From Escherichia phage 241Ecol014PP: DNA of 64,000 nt. The translations under genes were made by a program, and so were the position numbers. The notes below the pieces were generated by a model, which searched no databases, was not told the origin of the DNA, and worked only from the letters and a program-made list of their open reading frames with translations. Positions 35,351 to 62,845 of the stretch are shown here, piece after piece (the first letter of the stretch is position 1; every line of letters starts with the position of its first letter). Where the stretch lies: sequence record OR062943.1, one strand, 5' to 3'.

Positions 35351-35688
35351 GTTTGTGGAGAAATATAGTTAACTACGTGTGTGGCAATCCAACTCCTGAA
35401 GAGAAGGATGTTGTGATTCACGATTTTACTAAAAGATCTCGTGAAAAAGATCTACTGCTAACAAAGGTGACTGATAAAGATCCTGCAGTAGGGGACTGGG
35501 CAGGTTTTGCGTTCACATCGGACAAATACACCTTTAACAAAGGTGACTACCTTGTTGTGGATTTTAACGAGGACATCGAGGGTGCTGAACCTTACTATCA
35601 GACCCTTATCGTTGCAGGGTGTGTTAATCTCTCTGCAGGTGTGCACAGTTTGATTCTTTTTGAGCTTGACTCTGAAGACCTCCAGTAG
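35347..35688 (+). CDS. hypothetical protein
   Basis: 113-aa ORF. Confidence 0.4.
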   Translation: MSLWRNIVNYVCGNPTPEEKDVVIHDFTKRSREKDLLLTKVTDKDPAVGDWAGFAFTSDKYTFNKGDYLVVDFNEDIEGAEPYYQTLIVAGCVNLSAGVHSLILFELDSEDLQ

Positions 35689-35748
35689 TAAGATGTGAGT
35701 ATAAAGGGGAGGCACTCCTCCCCACAAAAACTAAGGAAGCACTGAACG

Positions 35749-36051
35749 ATGAAACGTTATAAACCATACACTTTTGAAATCGATTTCGAACTTGACGATA
35801 TGTTCACTGTAGAAGCTCAGGCAGTTGTCCAGTTGCCAGACCCGGAGTGCCGTGATTCTGATGTTGACTATTACGGATTTAGACAAATTACCGATGTGCA
35901 TGTTTACCACAACGGTGAAGAGGTGGACTTCCACAAACTGCCAAACGATATGCGCCACTCAATTTACAAACGTGCAGCCCGTGAACTAGAGTCCTATCTG
36001 GATGCAGCGACGACAGCAGCTGCATTTGCTGAAGAAGTGGGAGGTTTCTGA
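35749..36051 (+). CDS. hypothetical protein
   Basis: 100-aa ORF with AAGGAAG RBS. Confidence 0.4.
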   Translation: MKRYKPYTFEIDFELDDMFTVEAQAVVQLPDPECRDSDVDYYGFRQITDVHVYHNGEEVDFHKLPNDMRHSIYKRAARELESYLDAATTAAAFAEEVGGF

Positions 36052-36458: not shown

Positions 36459-36941
36459 ATGTCAGATTTTATGTGGAAAGTAGGTTACGCAACCCCTGAA
36501 ATGTGTGAGGCTTGCTTTGTTAAAATAGGCCGCGAGGATATCGACAAAGTGATCCTTAAGTTTCGTGATGTGGCTGTGATCGGCAACCGAGTGCTTAAGC
36601 ACTTAAAGAATCTGAAGCTCACCAAAAAGAAGTTCTTCGGACTTTTCGAAGAGAAGGTTGATGCTTGGACTCATTGCATTCAGGAAGCCAAATCTCACTA
36701 CAGTGCCATCGTTACTCCAGAACGGGTAGCAAAGATGGAAGGATTCATCAACAGCACAGAATTTGAGTGCCTAAAGGCTGCCCTTGATAGCTATCCAAAG
36801 TGCCTCAAACACCTTGACAAGTATGCAGAAAAGGATGGTGAAATGTATCTCACCCTGGACGCATATTATGAGATGCAAGAAATTTTAAATTTAGATTTGA
36901 CATTGGTATCCACCGAGTATACAATAGGTATCCGGGTTTAA
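36459..36941 (+). CDS. hypothetical protein
   Basis: 160-aa ORF, AAGGAGAAG RBS. Confidence 0.4.
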   Translation: MSDFMWKVGYATPEMCEACFVKIGREDIDKVILKFRDVAVIGNRVLKHLKNLKLTKKKFFGLFEEKVDAWTHCIQEAKSHYSAIVTPERVAKMEGFINSTEFECLKAALDSYPKCLKHLDKYAEKDGEMYLTLDAYYEMQEILNLDLTLVSTEYTIGIRV

Positions 36942-36947
36942 CACTAG

Positions 36948-36974
36948 GCCCTGCCCGAAAGGGTGGGGCTTTTT
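36948..36974 (+). terminator. rho-independent terminator
   Basis: GCCCTGCCC-GAAA-GGGTGGGGC with GAAA tetraloop then TTTTT; same hairpin recurs at 49592. Confidence 0.65.
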
Positions 36975-36992
36975 GCATTAGGAGACAGCAAA

Positions 36993-42800: not shown

Positions 42801-43276
42801 GCGTTACCGTCCCTTCTGGAGCAATCATTGTGAGAAGGAATGGTAAAGTGGCAGTGTGCGGTAACTGTAATAACGCCAAAGCTTACTCTTCTGTAGCAGG
42901 CAAGGAGATTTCCCGTAACGATGGTAAGCCTGTCACGTATGGGGTTATGTACGGGGCACAAAAAGATAAAGTTGCAGATATGCTGGATATCTCCCCAGAG
43001 TTGGGGCAAAGGGTGATCGATGCACTTTGGGATGCCAACCCCGGTCTTAAGGGGCGCAAAGAGGATCTGGAGAAATTCTGGGAAGCAACAGGTAAGAAGT
43101 TTATCTACTCTTTTGATGGTCATGCTATCTGGACTCGATCTAAACACTCTTTACTTAATGCATACCAACAAAATGGTGGTGCATCGCTGTGTGACTTAGT
43201 TGGGATACTCATGCACCACCAAATGGTGAAGCGTGGGTGGTACGATGAAGGTGTTCGTCGTATTATTTATTACCAT
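39884..43276 (+). CDS. family-A DNA polymerase, exon 1 (contains intein)
   Basis: Exo I FDFEASGL; motif A-like IDGSNLEQL; motif B-like RNDGKPVTYGVMYGA; ORF stops 2 codons after the His expected to begin motif C (HDE). Confidence 0.7.
41897..42865 (+). mobile_element. intein (323 aa) within DNA polymerase, putative LAGLIDADG endonuclease core
   Basis: in-frame insert between motifs A and B: starts CYSGDTQILTEKG, block B-like VTDQHRM, ends VYCVTV..NGKVAVCGN with +1 Cys; LLIAIHDDGHL and FIASLSNWDGW candidate LAGLIDADG motifs. Confidence 0.65.
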
Positions 43277-43552
43277 AAATAACATTGTGGCTTCATAGAG
43301 TAATCTATGTCGAATAACCTCTTTAACTGCGGGAAGCCTAAACCTTATGGCAAGGTAATCCGCAACGAAGCGCTCAAAAGAGCGAACGCTCAGAGGCCAT
43401 TCCGAAAGGAAGTAGACCAGCAAGTGCGGTCGAAATGGGAGGATTCCTGTGGTTGCTTATCATAGGAATATGAGATGGTCCGATCCTACGTGAAAACGTA
43501 TGGCTATGCACGTAATGGTGCGGGGTAGCTTAACGACCTACCTGAACTATTG
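43277..43552 (+). mobile_element. group I self-splicing intron (ORF-less) in DNA polymerase gene
   Basis: 276 nt; exon 1 ends ..CCAU pairing with GUGG guide at 43287-43290; P-like CTGCGGGAAG 43327, Q-like AATCCGCAAC 43357, P7 AGACCA 43414 / TGGTC 43476; last nt G; joins H|DE of motif C. Confidence 0.6.
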
Positions 43553-55682: not shown

Positions 55683-55710
55683 TTGACACGCTGCAAAATT
55701 AAAGTAAACT
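55683..55710 (+). promoter_or_regulatory. sigma70-like promoter
   Basis: TTGACA, 16-nt spacer, TAAACT. Confidence 0.55.
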
Positions 55711-55720
55711 AGACACAAAA

Positions 55721-55739
55721 GGCGGGAATGTTTCCCGCC
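55721..55739 (+). promoter_or_regulatory. conserved 5' leader hairpin GGCGGGAA-TGT-TTCCCGCC
   Basis: perfect 8-bp stem downstream of promoter, upstream of RBS; near-identical hairpin at 57922. Confidence 0.5.
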
Positions 55740-55758
55740 AGCACAAAGGAAAAAGATC

Positions 55759-56163
55759 ATGAATAAGAACGTACGCCGCATCATGAACGAACTGGCAAAC
55801 GATGAAAAAATTATTGATATGCATTTGGTCAACATTTGCCGCCGTTGTGTAACATACAACAACCGAGCCGCAAAAGCGCGTGAGATGAACGCAAAAGGCA
55901 CCTTAAAGCCATTCCAGGTGGTGGTAAAGGCCATTAAAGATGTAACTAATACGGCAAACCAGGTACAGGGGAACACCAACGAGAGTACCAATATTGATCC
56001 GGCTTACATCATGAAACGGATCCGGACCTGCAAGAACAAAGAGCAAGTGTATAATGTTATAGACTGGTTGGATTCTATGGGCGATGTGGTTTACAATAGG
56101 TTTTCTGCAGCTATTGAGATCCAGCTTGACAGGTTGGACGGTAAAGTACTGAAAACTTACTGA
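55759..56163 (+). CDS. hypothetical protein
   Basis: 134-aa ORF. Confidence 0.45.
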   Translation: MNKNVRRIMNELANDEKIIDMHLVNICRRCVTYNNRAAKAREMNAKGTLKPFQVVVKAIKDVTNTANQVQGNTNESTNIDPAYIMKRIRTCKNKEQVYNVIDWLDSMGDVVYNRFSAAIEIQLDRLDGKVLKTY

Positions 56164-56164
56164 G

Positions 56165-56205
56165 TTTATTTTTAGATGGCCTTGACACCAGGGCCATCAA
56201 TAAAG
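56165..56205 (+). repeat. 41-bp promoter/palindrome cassette, copy 1
   Basis: TTTATTTTTAGATGGCCTTGACACCAGGGCCATCAATAAAG; dyad GATGGCC..GGCCATC surrounds TTGACA. Confidence 0.65.
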
Positions 56206-56243
56206 TAAACTAATCTCAACTAAGCGAAAAAGGGGGCTTTAAG

Positions 56244-56363
56244 ATGAGCGCTACACGCCAATACACAAAGGTAACTATTATCGTTTGCGTTGTCGGTTAC
56301 ATCCTGGCGCAAATGTTAATGAGTAGCGCTAACAGTTTTGCAAAATTTTTCTTAAATTTTTAA
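56244..56363 (+). CDS. small hydrophobic peptide (39 aa)
   Basis: ATG after AAAGGGGG; single transmembrane-like segment; below track cutoff. Confidence 0.3.
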   Translation: MSATRQYTKVTIIVCVVGYILAQMLMSSANSFAKFFLNF

Positions 56364-56391
56364 TTGACAAACTAACTTAGATCAATATACT
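56364..56391 (+). promoter_or_regulatory. sigma70-like promoter
   Basis: TTGACA, 16-nt spacer, TATACT; followed by leader hairpin GGGAAAACTTCCC at 56405. Confidence 0.55.
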
Positions 56392-56442
56392 TAAACACGT
56401 AAACGGGAAAACTTCCCAGAGCACACAAAAGGAGAAAACACC

Positions 56443-56784
56443 ATGACTACTATGACCGCCGAAGAAAAAGCCCTGCAGATCGCCGCTCTGAAAAAACAGA
56501 TTGCAGAACTTGAAGACAAGATCGACAATTTTGAAATCGACGAAGACAAACACGACGATAAATATGATGAATGGTTAGACGAGATCTACGGCGAAATCAT
56601 GATCGGAAACATTTCTTTTCTTCCGTCGCGTATCCTCAAGGAGCTAGATCCTATCGCTTACCGCTGCGGATTTAGCGACTACATCGACAGCCTGGATATT
56701 GAGGACGATGAAGAATACCAAGAATTACAGACAGAGCTTGAAGAAGTGAAAGAAGAGCTTGCAGAACTGGAAGAAAACGAGTAA
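56443..56784 (+). CDS. highly acidic protein (candidate DNA mimic)
   Basis: 113 aa with roughly one third Asp/Glu and few basic residues; AAAGGAGAA RBS. Confidence 0.45.
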   Translation: MTTMTAEEKALQIAALKKQIAELEDKIDNFEIDEDKHDDKYDEWLDEIYGEIMIGNISFLPSRILKELDPIAYRCGFSDYIDSLDIEDDEEYQELQTELEEVKEELAELEENE

Positions 56785-56826
56785 ATTTATTTTTAGATGG
56801 CCTTGACACCAGGGCCATCAATAAAG
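56785..56826 (+). repeat. promoter/palindrome cassette, copy 2
   Basis: ATTTATTTTTAGATGGCCTTGACACCAGGGCCATCAATAAAG. Confidence 0.65.
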
Positions 56827-56859
56827 ATAATTTATTAACACCATGAAAGGAGAAAGTAC

Positions 56860-57213
56860 ATGATCAGCGGGGCTAGTTTTATTATTGGCGCTATTGCTAC
56901 GGCTTTAATTGTAAACAAGATCCAATCTAAAAACGAAAAAGATAGCAACGCGCTCACAGAATACCCATTTTGGGTATTCAACGACAACGAAGACTACATA
57001 ATCAAGTACAAGAATGAGAAGGGCGACCAGGTAACACCGCGACCGATCCCGGCTTACAAAATGCAAGAAACACTATACCGCCTAAAGGCTGGAGGCGCAA
57101 AAATCGTAGACTTTTGGGGATATGATTGCAAGGATCAGGAGGTTATAAAACGGCGTATCCGGGCGATTCAGGCAAATATTGAGATCAGTAAGGGGGGAAG
57201 TTATGAAAATTAA
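56860..57213 (+). CDS. membrane-anchored protein
   Basis: 117 aa; N-terminal hydrophobic helix ISGASFIIGAIATALIV. Confidence 0.45.
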   Translation: MISGASFIIGAIATALIVNKIQSKNEKDSNALTEYPFWVFNDNEDYIIKYKNEKGDQVTPRPIPAYKMQETLYRLKAGGAKIVDFWGYDCKDQEVIKRRIRAIQANIEISKGGSYEN

Positions 57214-57400
57214 TTTCGAAAAAATTGTAAAGCGCCCCCACGATTCCGAAGAGCTGCCGGAACGCCGCCAGCGCAACAATAAACTGAATAAACCGAAAAG
57301 ATTTGGGAAGATCTGGCGGAATCATTATGATCGTAAACTGCCTGTCCTACTTTTGGAACGTGAACGACAGGCGGAACGATACCGCCACAAAGGCAAATAA
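57203..57400 (+). CDS. small basic protein
   Basis: ATG 57203 after AGGGGGGAAG; Arg/Lys-rich; overlaps end of upstream gene. Confidence 0.35.
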   Translation: MKINFEKIVKRPHDSEELPERRQRNNKLNKPKRFGKIWRNHYDRKLPVLLLERERQAERYRHKGK

Positions 57401-57408
57401 CAACCAAC

Positions 57409-57438
57409 GCCCCGCCATTGTGCGGGGCTTTTTATTTC
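57409..57438 (+). terminator. rho-independent terminator
   Basis: GCCCCGC-CATTGT-GCGGGGC then TTTTTATTTC. Confidence 0.7.
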
Positions 57439-57570
57439 TATCCTACGAATAGCGCCCCTGGTTGGCCCTACAAACGCCACAAAAGCCCCTACCTATGCAA
57501 TCCCCTTTCTTAGCCTGAAAACATCACCCAGGGCCGTTTTATGGTGTTAAAAATATCTTTTATTTAAAGC

Positions 57571-57598
57571 TTGACACCTTGGAATCGCCTGATATACT
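57571..57598 (+). promoter_or_regulatory. sigma70-like promoter
   Basis: TTGACA, 16-nt spacer, TATACT. Confidence 0.55.
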
Positions 57599-57633
57599 AA
57601 CCACATCAAAGCAAGAAGGAAGGAGTAAACGCC

Positions 57634-57894
57634 ATGCGTAAATTAAAAAATTTTGATAAAGTCGATGTTGTCCTGAATAATTTTTACTACTGCAACAACA
57701 AGGCCATTTGGTGGCGTGATAGTTCCACCGATAAAGTCAAGGCGCGCTTTCTCCAGGGGCACTGGCAAGGCCGCCCAGTGATTAAAATCATGGGGCAATT
57801 GGTAGCGTTTAAAAATTGCCGCCGTGTTGATGACGTTGAAGAGATTCTAAACATTTTACGCCACAATAATTTAAAAAATAGTGTTGACAAGTAA
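57634..57894 (+). CDS. hypothetical protein
   Basis: 86-aa ORF with AGGAAGGAG RBS. Confidence 0.45.
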   Translation: MRKLKNFDKVDVVLNNFYYCNNKAIWWRDSSTDKVKARFLQGHWQGRPVIKIMGQLVAFKNCRRVDDVEEILNILRHNNLKNSVDK

Positions 57895-57911
57895 GCCTCA
57901 ATAAGTATACT
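57884..57911 (+). promoter_or_regulatory. sigma70-like promoter
   Basis: TTGACA overlapping stop codon, 16-nt spacer, TATACT. Confidence 0.55.
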
Positions 57912-57921
57912 TAAACACGCA

Positions 57922-57940
57922 GGCGGGAAAACTTCCCGCC
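57922..57940 (+). promoter_or_regulatory. conserved 5' leader hairpin GGCGGGAA-AAC-TTCCCGCC
   Basis: same stem as 55721-55739, located between promoter and RBS. Confidence 0.5.
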
Positions 57941-57968: not shown

Positions 57969-58592
57969 ATGACCACCGTTAACATTACTACAGGTTACAA
58001 TTTATCTTTCGACGTGCTGACCGACGAACAAAAAGAAAAAGCCGTTGAAATGGTCCGCGAAAGAGAAGAACACAGCGGGGATAACTTTTTTGCAGAAAGT
58101 GTAATTGAAGACTATAAAGAATATGTCTTTCCAGAGTATGGCCTTGAAGATACCAAGGTACATTGGTCCGGCTTTTGGTGCCAGGGTGACGGCGCGTCAA
58201 TCAGTGCGGAAAACGTGGATTTAGAAAAATTCTTGCGTAAAGTAAAGGCCCTGACCAAGTTCCGATCAATTCGTCACTTGTTCGGCACAATGCACGATGG
58301 CGAGCTATCCGCAAGTGTTGAGCGTGATCCATATAGCCGCTATAGTCACGAAAACACTGTAAGCGGGTACATCGATACTACATGGCTAGACCTGACCGCC
58401 AAACAAGAAAATAAAGTGGAAGATCTGGAAGAGCTGATCACCGAGACGGTACGGGAGCTATCCCGCAAGGTTTACGTAGACCTGGAGGGGGCCTATCTTG
58501 AACAATTCACTACCGAAAACCTGATCGGCCTTATCAAGGCCAATGATTGGCGGTTTGATGTGGATGAAGATGGCGAGATGACTTTTTCATAA
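57969..58592 (+). CDS. hypothetical protein
   Basis: 207-aa ORF, acidic. Confidence 0.45.
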   Translation: MTTVNITTGYNLSFDVLTDEQKEKAVEMVREREEHSGDNFFAESVIEDYKEYVFPEYGLEDTKVHWSGFWCQGDGASISAENVDLEKFLRKVKALTKFRSIRHLFGTMHDGELSASVERDPYSRYSHENTVSGYIDTTWLDLTAKQENKVEDLEELITETVRELSRKVYVDLEGAYLEQFTTENLIGLIKANDWRFDVDEDGEMTFS

Positions 58593-58682
58593 ATAAAGTG
58601 TTGCAATAACCTAAAAACCTGCTATATTAAAACTCAAGGGGGCAAGACGTTTGCCCCCACACAAAACAAAGAGGAAAACATC

Positions 58683-59063
58683 ATGAAAAACACTACTAAA
58701 GCTATTGACACCGTTATGTTTAACCTGGTTACCTTTCGCGAGGATATGAAAGATCTTCCACGTGAAACAGTGTGCGATCACATTGAAAACTATCGCAAAC
58801 TAATCAAAGAGTTGCCTTTAAAACGTGATCAGTATGCGGCTAACGCCATGCTTAATGCCATGATCAAAAAGATGATCCAGTGTGATTTAACTCTAGCCTA
58901 TGATTATGCGGGTGGTCGTTTTGCAGTATACAATCAGCCCGTGCCTGGTATGAGCACCACAGAAGAATTGCACGCGTTAAATCTAAAACAAGACGTGTGG
59001 GATAGTATGCCCCGCGTGGTGGTATGGGTAGAAAGCGGGAAGATTTACGGCGATAATTTTTAA
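58683..59063 (+). CDS. hypothetical protein
   Basis: 126-aa ORF with AAGAGGAAA RBS. Confidence 0.45.
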   Translation: MKNTTKAIDTVMFNLVTFREDMKDLPRETVCDHIENYRKLIKELPLKRDQYAANAMLNAMIKKMIQCDLTLAYDYAGGRFAVYNQPVPGMSTTEELHALNLKQDVWDSMPRVVVWVESGKIYGDNF

Positions 59064-59841: not shown

Positions 59842-59846
59842 GAACG

Positions 59847-59876
59847 GCCCCCGATCATGGGGGCTTATCTTTTTAA
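59847..59876 (+). terminator. rho-independent terminator
   Basis: GCCCCC-GATCAT-GGGGGC then TTATCTTTTT. Confidence 0.7.
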
Positions 59877-59980
59877 AAAATTTTTCTTCTAGGGTGTTGC
59901 AATCCGGTCCGGAATGTGGATAATGACAATCAACGGGGAGCTAATCCCCACCAACACAAAAACCAGAAAGGAGAAACAAA

Positions 59981-60181
59981 ATGAGCAACAATATCCGCGT
60001 TATTAACTTCAAAAAAGAAGAAAAAATTGCCGTGCTGATTGACGGTCAAGAAATCTTCAAGGGCGATTATGAAGATCATCAAACGGCGATTAGTATCACT
60101 CGCGTGATCGGTTACCATAATTTCTACCCCCAAGGCGCTGAGGCAGCAGTTAAACGAATCAAAGAGATTGTAGGCCTGTAA
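59981..60181 (+). CDS. hypothetical protein
   Basis: 66-aa ORF, AAAGGAGAA RBS. Confidence 0.4.
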   Translation: MSNNIRVINFKKEEKIAVLIDGQEIFKGDYEDHQTAISITRVIGYHNFYPQGAEAAVKRIKEIVGL

Positions 60182-60182
60182 A

Positions 60183-60224
60183 ATTTATTTTTAGATGGCC
60201 TTGACCCCAGGGCCATCAATAAAG
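60183..60224 (+). repeat. promoter/palindrome cassette, copy 3 (TTGACC variant)
   Basis: ATTTATTTTTAGATGGCCTTGACCCCAGGGCCATCAATAAAG. Confidence 0.65.
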
Positions 60225-61485: not shown

Positions 61486-61719
61486 ATGATGGAACAAATT
61501 AAACGCGCTGAGGCTATTAATGGCAATGTGATCTATTTTGTCAGCAATAACGAAAAAGGCGTACCATATGCGGCGGTAATAGTACAGCCTGACGGCAATT
61601 ATTGGTTTACTGTATACGGATCTTATTCTTTCGGGCGTCCGGTGCATGATAGAATTTTGAAAGTAGCGAACCCCACCGGGAAGAATATCACGGCAGAAAA
61701 ATTTTTTGAAAATAATTGA
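61486..61719 (+). CDS. hypothetical protein
   Basis: 77-aa ORF. Confidence 0.4.
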   Translation: MMEQIKRAEAINGNVIYFVSNNEKGVPYAAVIVQPDGNYWFTVYGSYSFGRPVHDRILKVANPTGKNITAEKFFENN

Positions 61720-61743
61720 CAACGTTTTAAATTAGTTTAAGAT
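61716..61743 (+). promoter_or_regulatory. sigma70-like promoter
   Basis: TTGACA overlapping stop codon, 16-nt spacer, TAAGAT. Confidence 0.4.
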
Positions 61744-61793
61744 GTATCACGTAGGGCGGCAATGGTGCCGCTCACAACTGGAAGGAAAACACC

Positions 61794-61997
61794 ATGACTA
61801 CAGCTAACCGCCTGATCGCCGTCCTGAACAAAGCAAAGGCTAACCGCCTGGATGTTCAAATCAAAGAGCAAGCAAATGGCGAGATCCTTGCTACGGTGTC
61901 CGATGGCGGTTATGTATCGGAATCATTTTTATCAGGGAGCTTAGATCATCTTGTTTGGAAATTAGAAATTATCGTGGAGGATATGCAGATCATCTAA
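61794..61997 (+). CDS. hypothetical protein
   Basis: 67-aa ORF with GGAAGGAAA RBS. Confidence 0.4.
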   Translation: MTTANRLIAVLNKAKANRLDVQIKEQANGEILATVSDGGYVSESFLSGSLDHLVWKLEIIVEDMQII

Positions 61998-62006
61998 TCT
62001 TTACAA

Positions 62007-62037
62007 AACAGGGCTTGTTTTTGTCCTGTTTTTTGTT
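62007..62037 (+). terminator. rho-independent terminator
   Basis: AACAGGGC..GTCCTGTT stem then TTTTGTT. Confidence 0.55.
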
Positions 62038-62118: not shown

Positions 62119-62147
62119 TTGACATCTGCCAGGTGGTGGGGTAACAT
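62119..62147 (+). promoter_or_regulatory. sigma70-like promoter
   Basis: TTGACA, 17-nt spacer, TAACAT. Confidence 0.45.
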
Positions 62148-62201
62148 TTATCTTGAAGGGGCAAAAGTGCCCACACAACAACCAGAAGAGAGGAAAACAT
62201 T

Positions 62202-62474
62202 ATGTCAAGCTGGATTAATCAAGAAGTCGAATCACGTTTTAACGCTATTTGGGATCTCATCGAAAAAGAGGACGGAACATCAAGCCCTTATCTCAATAAT
62301 CTTGAATTCCATTTCGTGGAAGCGATGAACGCAGAACATGATCACGAAGGTGGTGCGGATGAATTCGCTAAAGGATATGGCTTCAACAATGCCAACGAAA
62401 TGATCGAGGCGGTTGTACTCCAGGCTGAGGAAGATTATCAATTAAAAACGCTTGAATTCTGCCGCCGTAAGTAA
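62202..62474 (+). CDS. hypothetical acidic protein
   Basis: 90-aa ORF with AGAGAGGAAAA RBS. Confidence 0.4.
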   Translation: MSSWINQEVESRFNAIWDLIEKEDGTSSPYLNNLEFHFVEAMNAEHDHEGGADEFAKGYGFNNANEMIEAVVLQAEEDYQLKTLEFCRRK

Positions 62475-62819: not shown

Positions 62820-62845
62820 AGGGGCTTAAAGCCCCTTTCTTTTTG
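62820..62845 (+). terminator. rho-independent terminator
   Basis: AGGGGC-TTAAA-GCCCCT then TTCTTTTTG. Confidence 0.75.

Follow-up and report, generated by a model that had tools for sequence, protein, structure and literature searches.

What could a GC-rich hairpin be doing between the promoter and the ribosome-binding site of several small genes of the same phage? The question is raised by a 64,000-nucleotide stretch of Escherichia phage 241Ecol014PP (sequence record OR062943.1), the whole of which is referred to here as the window. An earlier note, made from the sequence alone, had pointed to the same 8-bp GC stem at 55721-55739 and 57922-57940 and to a degenerate relative at 56405-56417, each lying a few nucleotides (nt) after a predicted transcription start, and had proposed that such a hairpin could stabilise early mRNAs or act as a translational operator. 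Judged by its sequence, the window is that of an rV5-like coliphage (Vequintavirus); its 55.4-58.3 kb region shows 93-95% identity to Escherichia phages APECc02 and rV5 and to about 115 other Vequintavirus records. As described below, the repeated hairpin is a real, non-random feature of this region. The earlier note missed that cassette hairpins form a larger family, in which the 8-bp motif is a single variant, and that a close relative of this architecture has already been described in other phages as promoter-early stem-loops (PeSLs; PMC2839356).

A pattern search of the 64 kb detected the motif GGCGGGAA-N3-TTCCCGCC exactly at two places, as GGCGGGAATGTTTCCCGCC at 55721-55739 (site A) and as GGCGGGAAAACTTCCCGCC at 57922-57940 (site C), against a chance expectation of 0.00 in 100 dinucleotide shuffles; no further copy with up to two mismatches was found in the window. 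That the two 8-bp stems are identical is best explained by paralogy or by exchange, both being copies of one popular variant of the hairpin. The degenerate relative, GGGAAAACTTCCC at 56405-56417 (site B), is a 5-bp copy. The loose 5-bp pattern is not significant by itself (four found and 1.72 expected, with at least four in 12 of the 100 shuffles), and the relevance of site B derives instead from its context, since the promoter-proximal sequence TATACTTAAACACG is common to sites B and C and the site B hairpin is kept in 13 of the 13 relatives examined. Because the same TATACTTAAACACG stands upstream of both hairpins, we regard site B as a decayed paralogue of site C.

The order of promoter, hairpin and ribosome-binding site had been described correctly, and all three leaders are read from the plus strand. 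The predicted site A promoter (55683-55710) consists of TTGACA (55683-55688), a 16-nt spacer and TAAACT (55705-55710), with an A-rich tract upstream, and its orthologous place is annotated as a promoter in phage Gotham. The hairpin GGCGGGAA-UGU-UUCCCGCC (55721-55739) starts 10 nt past the -10 element and is followed by the linker agcacaaaggaaaaagatc and by an open reading frame (ORF) of 134 amino acids (55759-56163). At site B, the promoter (56364-56391; P192 in the rV5 annotation) has TTGACA, a 16-nt spacer and the -10 element TATACT (56386-56391); the hairpin GGGAA-AAC-UUCCC (56405-56417) starts 13 nt past it, and the ATG of a 113-amino-acid ORF lies at 56443. The site C promoter (57884-57911) has the same TTGACA, 16-nt spacer and TATACT (57906-57911), the hairpin GGCGGGAA-AAC-UUCCCGCC (57922-57940) starts 10 nt past the -10 element, and an ORF of 207 amino acids begins with the ATG at 57969. 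Predicted folding energies are -14.6 kcal/mol for each of sites A and C (z -2.75 and -3.53, respectively) and only -5.9 kcal/mol for site B (z -0.84). In the predicted folds of all three leaders the Shine-Dalgarno (SD) sequence is unpaired and 6-16 nt away from the hairpin.

By listing the sequence after every strong promoter, together with every GC hairpin in the window, we found five further leaders with the same layout and different GC stems, all on the plus strand, which brings the total to eight. At site D the hairpin GGGGGCAA-GACGU-UUGCCCCC (58638-58658) starts 9 nt past the -10 element of TTGCAA-16-TATATT (58601-58628), with the ATG at 58683; at site H, GGGGA-GCUAA-UCCCC (59935-59949) starts 10 nt past that of TTGCAA-16-GATAAT (59897-59924), with the ATG at 59981; and at site E, GGGCGGCA-AUGG-UGCCGCUC (61754-61773, with one G.U pair) starts 10 nt past that of TTGACA-16-TAAGAT (61716-61743), with the ATG at 61794. 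The site F hairpin GGGCA-AAAG-UGCCC (62159-62172) lies 11 nt past the -10 element of TTGACA-17-TAACAT (62119-62147; P168 in the rV5 annotation) and before an ATG at 62202. Site G lies apart from the others: its hairpin GGGGAGG-CACU-CCUCCCC (35706-35723; predicted fold -14.1 kcal/mol, z -3.11) starts 11 nt past the -10 element of TTGACT-17-TAAGAT (35666-35694), and its ATG is at 35749.

The distance between the -10 element and the hairpin (G 11, A 10, B 13, C 10, D 9, H 10, E 10 and F 11 nt) is thus 9-13 nt in all eight leaders and 9-11 nt in seven of them. The sequences that fill this gap are unrelated, and the 5' arms of the stems differ (GGCGGGAA, GGGGGCAA, GGGCGGCA, GGGCA, GGGGAGG and GGGGA). 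Among 52 promoter matches, five have a hairpin starting 9-15 nt after the -10 element, where 0.67 would be expected (P=5.5e-4). The energies of the eight hairpins range from -4 to -14.4 kcal/mol in isolation and from -5.9 to -15.4 kcal/mol with a few flanking bases. Their promoters have TTGACA or TTGCAA, spacers of 16-17 nt, TAnnnT hexamers, scores of 9-11 out of 12 and A/T-rich upstream sequences. Each hairpin is followed by an A/C-rich linker (e.g. acacaaaacaaagagg), an SD sequence and an ATG within 19-31 nt, and the ORFs encode 66-207 amino acids.

Taken as a unit, each cassette would comprise an A/T-rich tract, a strong σ70 promoter, a GC stem-loop, an unstructured A/C-rich linker, an SD sequence and an ATG, and would serve one short early gene. 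In Escherichia coli, transcription starts about 7 nt after the -10 element. With such a start, the hairpin would lie 2-6 nt from the triphosphate 5' end of the cassette's own transcript, and the earlier statement that it follows the start by a few nucleotides holds only for this predicted start. The hairpin appears to be tied to the transcription start, because it begins at a fixed 9-13 nt past the -10 element in spite of unrelated stems and gaps; the structure alone, and not the sequence of stem or loop, seems to matter. A stem-loop so close to the 5' end would be expected to obstruct RNase E, at its 5'-end sensor, as well as RppH, and thereby to lengthen the life of early mRNAs, and it would also cap the 5' side of a downstream cistron once longer read-through transcripts are cut. 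We put the chance that the hairpin is a 5'-end shield of early mRNAs against decay at about even; both the start and the stabilising effect are inferred. Of the two functions suggested previously, mRNA stabilisation is the better supported. It is consistent with the constant position, the unrelated stems, the absence of a U-tract, the unpaired SD sequence, a bias of stem variants towards G.U over A.C, the retention of hairpins in relatives and the recurrence of the layout in other phages.

A comparable arrangement is known from the leader of T7 φ10 (gene 10), where the mRNA has a GC stem-loop (GGGAGACC...GGUUUCCC) at its very start, and after it an A/U-rich stretch of leader that is unstructured and a strong SD sequence, and which is reported to add stability; it differs in using T7 RNA polymerase and class III promoters, in having its hairpin from +1 and in not being a mobile σ70 cassette. 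Secondary structure at the 5' end stabilises E. coli mRNA, since both RppH and RNase E require a 5' end that is single-stranded (review PMC3997798, citing Emory 1992, Bouvet & Belasco 1992 and Arnold 1998). The 5' stem-loops of ompA (hp1) and papA resemble the leaders described here in that a stable hairpin very near the 5' end, which here is a predicted one, is followed by an unstructured leader and a ribosome-binding site (PMC3997798). An effect of the ompA/papA type is expected to be independent of the stem sequence, which fits the diversity of stems in the window. The difference is that ompA and papA have single-gene leaders, whereas the phage has a repeated mobile cassette.

The 207-amino-acid protein (ATG 57969), used as a query for related loci, retrieved two close relatives only, and the comparison of leaders was then based on GenBank phage records; leaders were aligned from 13-15 rV5-like genomes with 90-97% identity. 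Every orthologue retains a hairpin, with folds of -8 to -16 kcal/mol at sites A, C and D. Variable columns are concentrated in the loops (13 of 18) as compared with the stems (16 of 68; P=2e-4). Three loops, each in a single relative, are reverse-complemented: that of site A (window 55729-55731) in slur16 (L012), TGT to ACA; that of site C (57930-57932) in APECc02 (L013), AAC to GTT; and that of site D (58646-58650) in A141 (L016), GACGT to ACGTC. Such flips are minute inversions, a known behaviour of DNA palindromes and of the kind made by template switching, and since loops can flip to their reverse complement, the loop is evidently not read. In some relatives pairing survives only as G.U (site C in L004, F in L016 and D in L019), and a few changes make the stem weaker (site A in L002; site C in L003 and L017/L021). 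When transition mismatches in leader stems were collected with a strand-symmetric finder, five sense-strand G.T and no A.C mismatches were found (P=0.06), and among the stem variants of the orthologues G.U exceeds A.C by three to one. This bias hints at selection on the sense RNA, although it is suggestive only. It should be mentioned that more than 20 GenBank records numbered MG0656xx (e.g. relatives L016-L021), with 90-95% identity to this region, are labelled 'Campylobacter phage', UNVERIFIED, with Campylobacter jejuni as host, and are classified as Vequintavirus; the host label looks doubtful.

Several observations weigh against a 5'-end shield. The transcription starts are predicted ones, and a 5' tail of 2-6 nt may, according to what is reported of Belasco's work, be too long for full protection. 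The stems, with 23.5% variable columns, show no excess conservation over the neighbouring non-coding DNA (about 19%), and covariation proper could not be demonstrated among relatives that are 90-97% identical and whose stems vary to the same degree as the rest of the non-coding DNA. In natural variants the energy of some stems drops to only -8 to -10 kcal/mol, the site B stem has only 5 bp, and a hairpin is missing from the short leaders of about 12 of the approximately 20 promoters of the region that are credible. The G.U bias, too, comes from few independent events and partly from paralogous hairpins. Finally, most RB49 PeSLs have their stem-loop within the promoter itself, either between -35 and -10 or around -10 (PMC2839356), and hence not at the 5' end of their own transcript, so that the class as a whole may have a role independent of the start.

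These PeSLs of T4-like phages are the closest described class for the cassettes of the window. They were described in RB49/phi1, PST and nt-1 by Arbiol et al. 2010 (PMC2839356) and Comeau et al. 2014 (PMC4122927) as units of a σ70 early promoter, a Gn-loop-Cn stem-loop and an SD sequence, repeated among ORFan early genes and associated with cassette shuffling and mini-circles. Five of the seven defining features of PeSLs were examined here and all five are present: promoter, stem-loop, SD sequence and start codon, clustered copies and modular shuffling. The window has the A/T-rich tract, the consensus σ70 early promoter, the Gn-loop-Cn stem-loop and the SD/ATG, in many copies within an early region of small ORFans, and where close relatives differ by an indel or a replacement, the cassettes mark its limits. 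The RB49 rIIB leader has the same layout (TATAAT, 10 nt, GGGCGGCGA-tag-TCGCCC, aactaatagagg and ATG). Of the five PeSL subclasses defined by the position of the stem-loop (PMC2839356), both 'downstream of the -10' and 'overlapping the -35' occur in the window. The latter is represented by a 7-bp palindrome, GATGGCC-N10-GGCCATC, which encloses the -35 element TTGACA in three copies (56175-56198 on the plus strand, 56796-56819 and 60194-60217), within a repeated cassette of about 45 nt, TTTATTTTTAGATGGCCTTGAC(A/C)CCAGGGCCATCAATAAAG (approximately 56165-56211 for the first copy). Altogether, eleven cassettes lie within 35.6-62.2 kb, ten of them at 55.6-62.2 kb. The cassettes differ from the described PeSLs in the phages that carry them, which are Vequintavirinae and 121Q-type jumbo phages and not T4-like phages, and in the place of the stem-loop, which in RB49 is mostly between -35 and -10 or over -10, whereas here and in 121Q it is almost always 9-14 nt past the -10 element and presumably in the transcript. 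The literature searched yielded no account of PeSLs, or of leader hairpins, for Vequintavirinae or rV5-like phages.

Other known hairpins were considered and rejected. A lambdoid nut/boxB-like element or a loop-reading operator does not agree with loops that differ between sites and orthologues and are inverted in three cases, and no boxA-like CGCTCTT was seen beside the hairpins in the sequence read. A hairpin promoter of the N4 type, used by a virion RNA polymerase, does not agree with hairpins that lie downstream of ordinary σ70 promoters. A covariance scan with Rfam 15 over 35-64 kb gave no match with E<=1 at any of the hairpins apart from a single chance-level overlap at 58614-58685 (E=0.6; 33.5 bits, the gathering score being 94.4).

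The layout of promoter and hairpin was also observed in Seunavirus 4MG and LNA4, in unclassified 153-kb contigs, in 121Q, in a Klebsiella jumbo phage and, as mentioned, at RB49 rIIB; RB49 was not among the listed matches of a tblastn search with the site F gene. In the jumbo coliphage 121Q, the hairpins GCGGGAA-CAC/UAG-UUCCCGC and a family GGGGAGAA-UAG-UUCUCCCC lie 12-14 nt past TATAAT. The early promoters of 121Q (L023, corresponding to 121Q 136454-142032, and L050) have in common a longer consensus, AAAGTACTTGCAA-N16-TATAAT-gttttacatc, ahead of the hairpin, and nearly every small gene there has a cassette of its own. An identical hairpin of 17-19 nt precedes non-homologous genes in Vequintavirus, Seunavirus, the 153-kb contigs and 121Q. 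A scan of IMG/VR for the exact motif returned 116 sites, with 92 strand-contexts flagged as terminators; most are T-run terminators of unrelated phages, and a leader context was seen in only about five (L079, L080, L087, L108 and L117), one of which, L087, has no near match among GenBank phages. Because most of these sites are plain terminators, the stem sequence is best regarded as that of a generic strong hairpin; what appears to be special in the window is the place of the hairpin and the missing U-tract, not the sequence of the stem. There is a small chance that PeSL-type cassettes are not peculiar to T4-like phages but are a shared, horizontally exchanged expression module of several unrelated families of large enterobacterial myoviruses (Vequintavirus, Seunavirus, 121Q/RaK2-type jumbo phages and RB49), with the core GCGGGAA-N3-TTCCCGC being retained not simply as a good hairpin but because a factor of the host or the phage recognises it, either in RNA or in extruded DNA.

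How do other explanations compare with a 5'-end shield? The PeSL authors proposed that the stem-loop attenuates or terminates transcription that comes in from promoters further upstream, which would insulate each early gene from read-through. Indeed, the PeSL211/210 stem-loop, placed after a strong promoter, lowers lacZ expression about as much as rrnB T1 does (PMC2839356), rho-independent terminators likewise have short GC hairpins, and the very stem GGCGGGAA-N3-TTCCCGCC terminates in many unrelated viral contigs, being an ordinary T-run terminator at most of the 116 IMG/VR sites. Here, however, a U-tract is absent after each of the eight hairpins: the next 9 nt on the plus strand are A/C-rich and contain 0-1 T in every case, so that the authors' terminator role is not supported by the sequence. 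Moreover, canonical terminators with a hairpin and a T-run lie nearby (57409-57428, 59846-59865, 62005-62032 and 62820-62836); those upstream of the promoters of sites F and H would make a second one redundant, and attenuation would need no fixed distance from the -10 element. We consider this role unlikely in the window. An intrinsic terminator acting on either strand was also rejected, as the minus-strand tails are not consistently T-rich; a minus-strand terminator scan flagged only site A, and the flank at site C is tgcgtgttta. Still less probable is a sequence-specific operator, either a palindrome bound by a dimeric DNA repressor (approximately +4 to +22) or a target of an RNA-binding translational repressor, that would co-regulate the genes at 55759, 56443 and 57969. 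In its favour would be the half-site GGCGGGAA, which is identical at two promoters and encloses a triplet that varies, an arrangement seen in many dimer operators, and the recurrence of the core GCGGGAA-N3-TTCCCGC in leaders of other enterobacterial phage groups. But unrelated stems occupy the same position in the five other leaders, site B is without the outer 3 bp, one half-site is broken in natural variants (L002, L003 and L017/L021), and the loops are hypervariable and inverting, unlike known phage RNA operators such as that of T4 gp43, in which the loop bases are retained (PMC3014915). No protein emerged as a candidate for binding and the SD sequence is not overlapped, and we therefore disfavour the translational operator that had been suggested as the alternative function. 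That the palindromes arose by chance or are neutral, without function, is hardly credible: although the stems are no more conserved than the flanking non-coding DNA and many promoters lack a hairpin, no exact match of the motif was expected, the hairpins are enriched at one position, and several phage lineages show this architecture again, with stems that differ.

An explanation at the level of DNA deserves separate consideration, in which the palindrome and the promoter form a recombination module that mobilises small early genes and the hairpin is only a hitch-hiking scar of exchange. Exchange itself was observed. Homology to the window ends at the last base of the -35 element of the 61716 promoter in six of the six relatives compared, and in slur16 and A141 it resumes just upstream of the -10 element, after 1.6-1.7 kb that the window lacks. 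The spacer of the window promoter at 61716-61743 (acgttttaaattagtt) matches neither the upstream nor the downstream slur16 promoter (L012 7394-7514 and 9012-9132), which suggests a putative third parental cassette. In two relatives, C2/C5 (L018/L019), the site F hairpin is replaced by that of site D. The cassettes thus behave as recombination modules, and hairpins are swapped between leaders. The three loop inversions typical of template switching at palindromes, the identical hairpins before non-homologous genes in several phage groups and the mapping of PeSL crossovers to the loop (PMC2839356) all fit this explanation. Nevertheless, the breakpoint observed here is in the promoter spacer and not in the hairpin, the position of the hairpin is constrained relative to the -10 element even though the stems differ, and sense-strand G.T is preferred over A.C. 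A role at the DNA level and nothing else consequently seems improbable to us. Recombination is compatible with a role in the RNA; it is an established side of the same element and not a competitor to the 5'-end shield.

The 55.4-58.3 kb region is part of a long arm made up of small early genes without annotation, which the authors of the rV5 genome described as one transcription unit with many σ70-type promoters (PMC3606486), and the genes around the cassettes are all annotated as hypothetical in the relatives. Two other elements of the window may be mentioned. At 36897-36990 (plus strand), a strong promoter, TTGACA-17-TACAAT, is followed 22 nt on by a terminator-like hairpin, GCCCTGCCC-GAAA-GGGTGGGGC, with TTTTT; an SD sequence (aggaga) occurs only after that hairpin, so that the element could be an attenuator or give rise to a very short transcript. 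A group I catalytic intron (Rfam RF00028) was detected at 43267-43502 (plus strand), as a match to the full-length model with E=1.8e-14 and 64.7 bits, the gathering score being 50.

Biologically, these observations are incremental and introduce no new principle. They extend the concept of PeSLs, mobile cassettes of a promoter and a stem-loop, from T4-like phages to Vequintavirinae, 121Q and a Klebsiella jumbo phage. For annotation and phage engineering, the cassettes offer a recognisable signature of independently expressed early-gene modules and a source of natural strong promoter/5'-UTR (5' untranslated region) parts. They also suggest that the stem-loop of these phages belongs to the mRNA leader, and that its effect there would be to stabilise early transcripts and not to terminate transcription.

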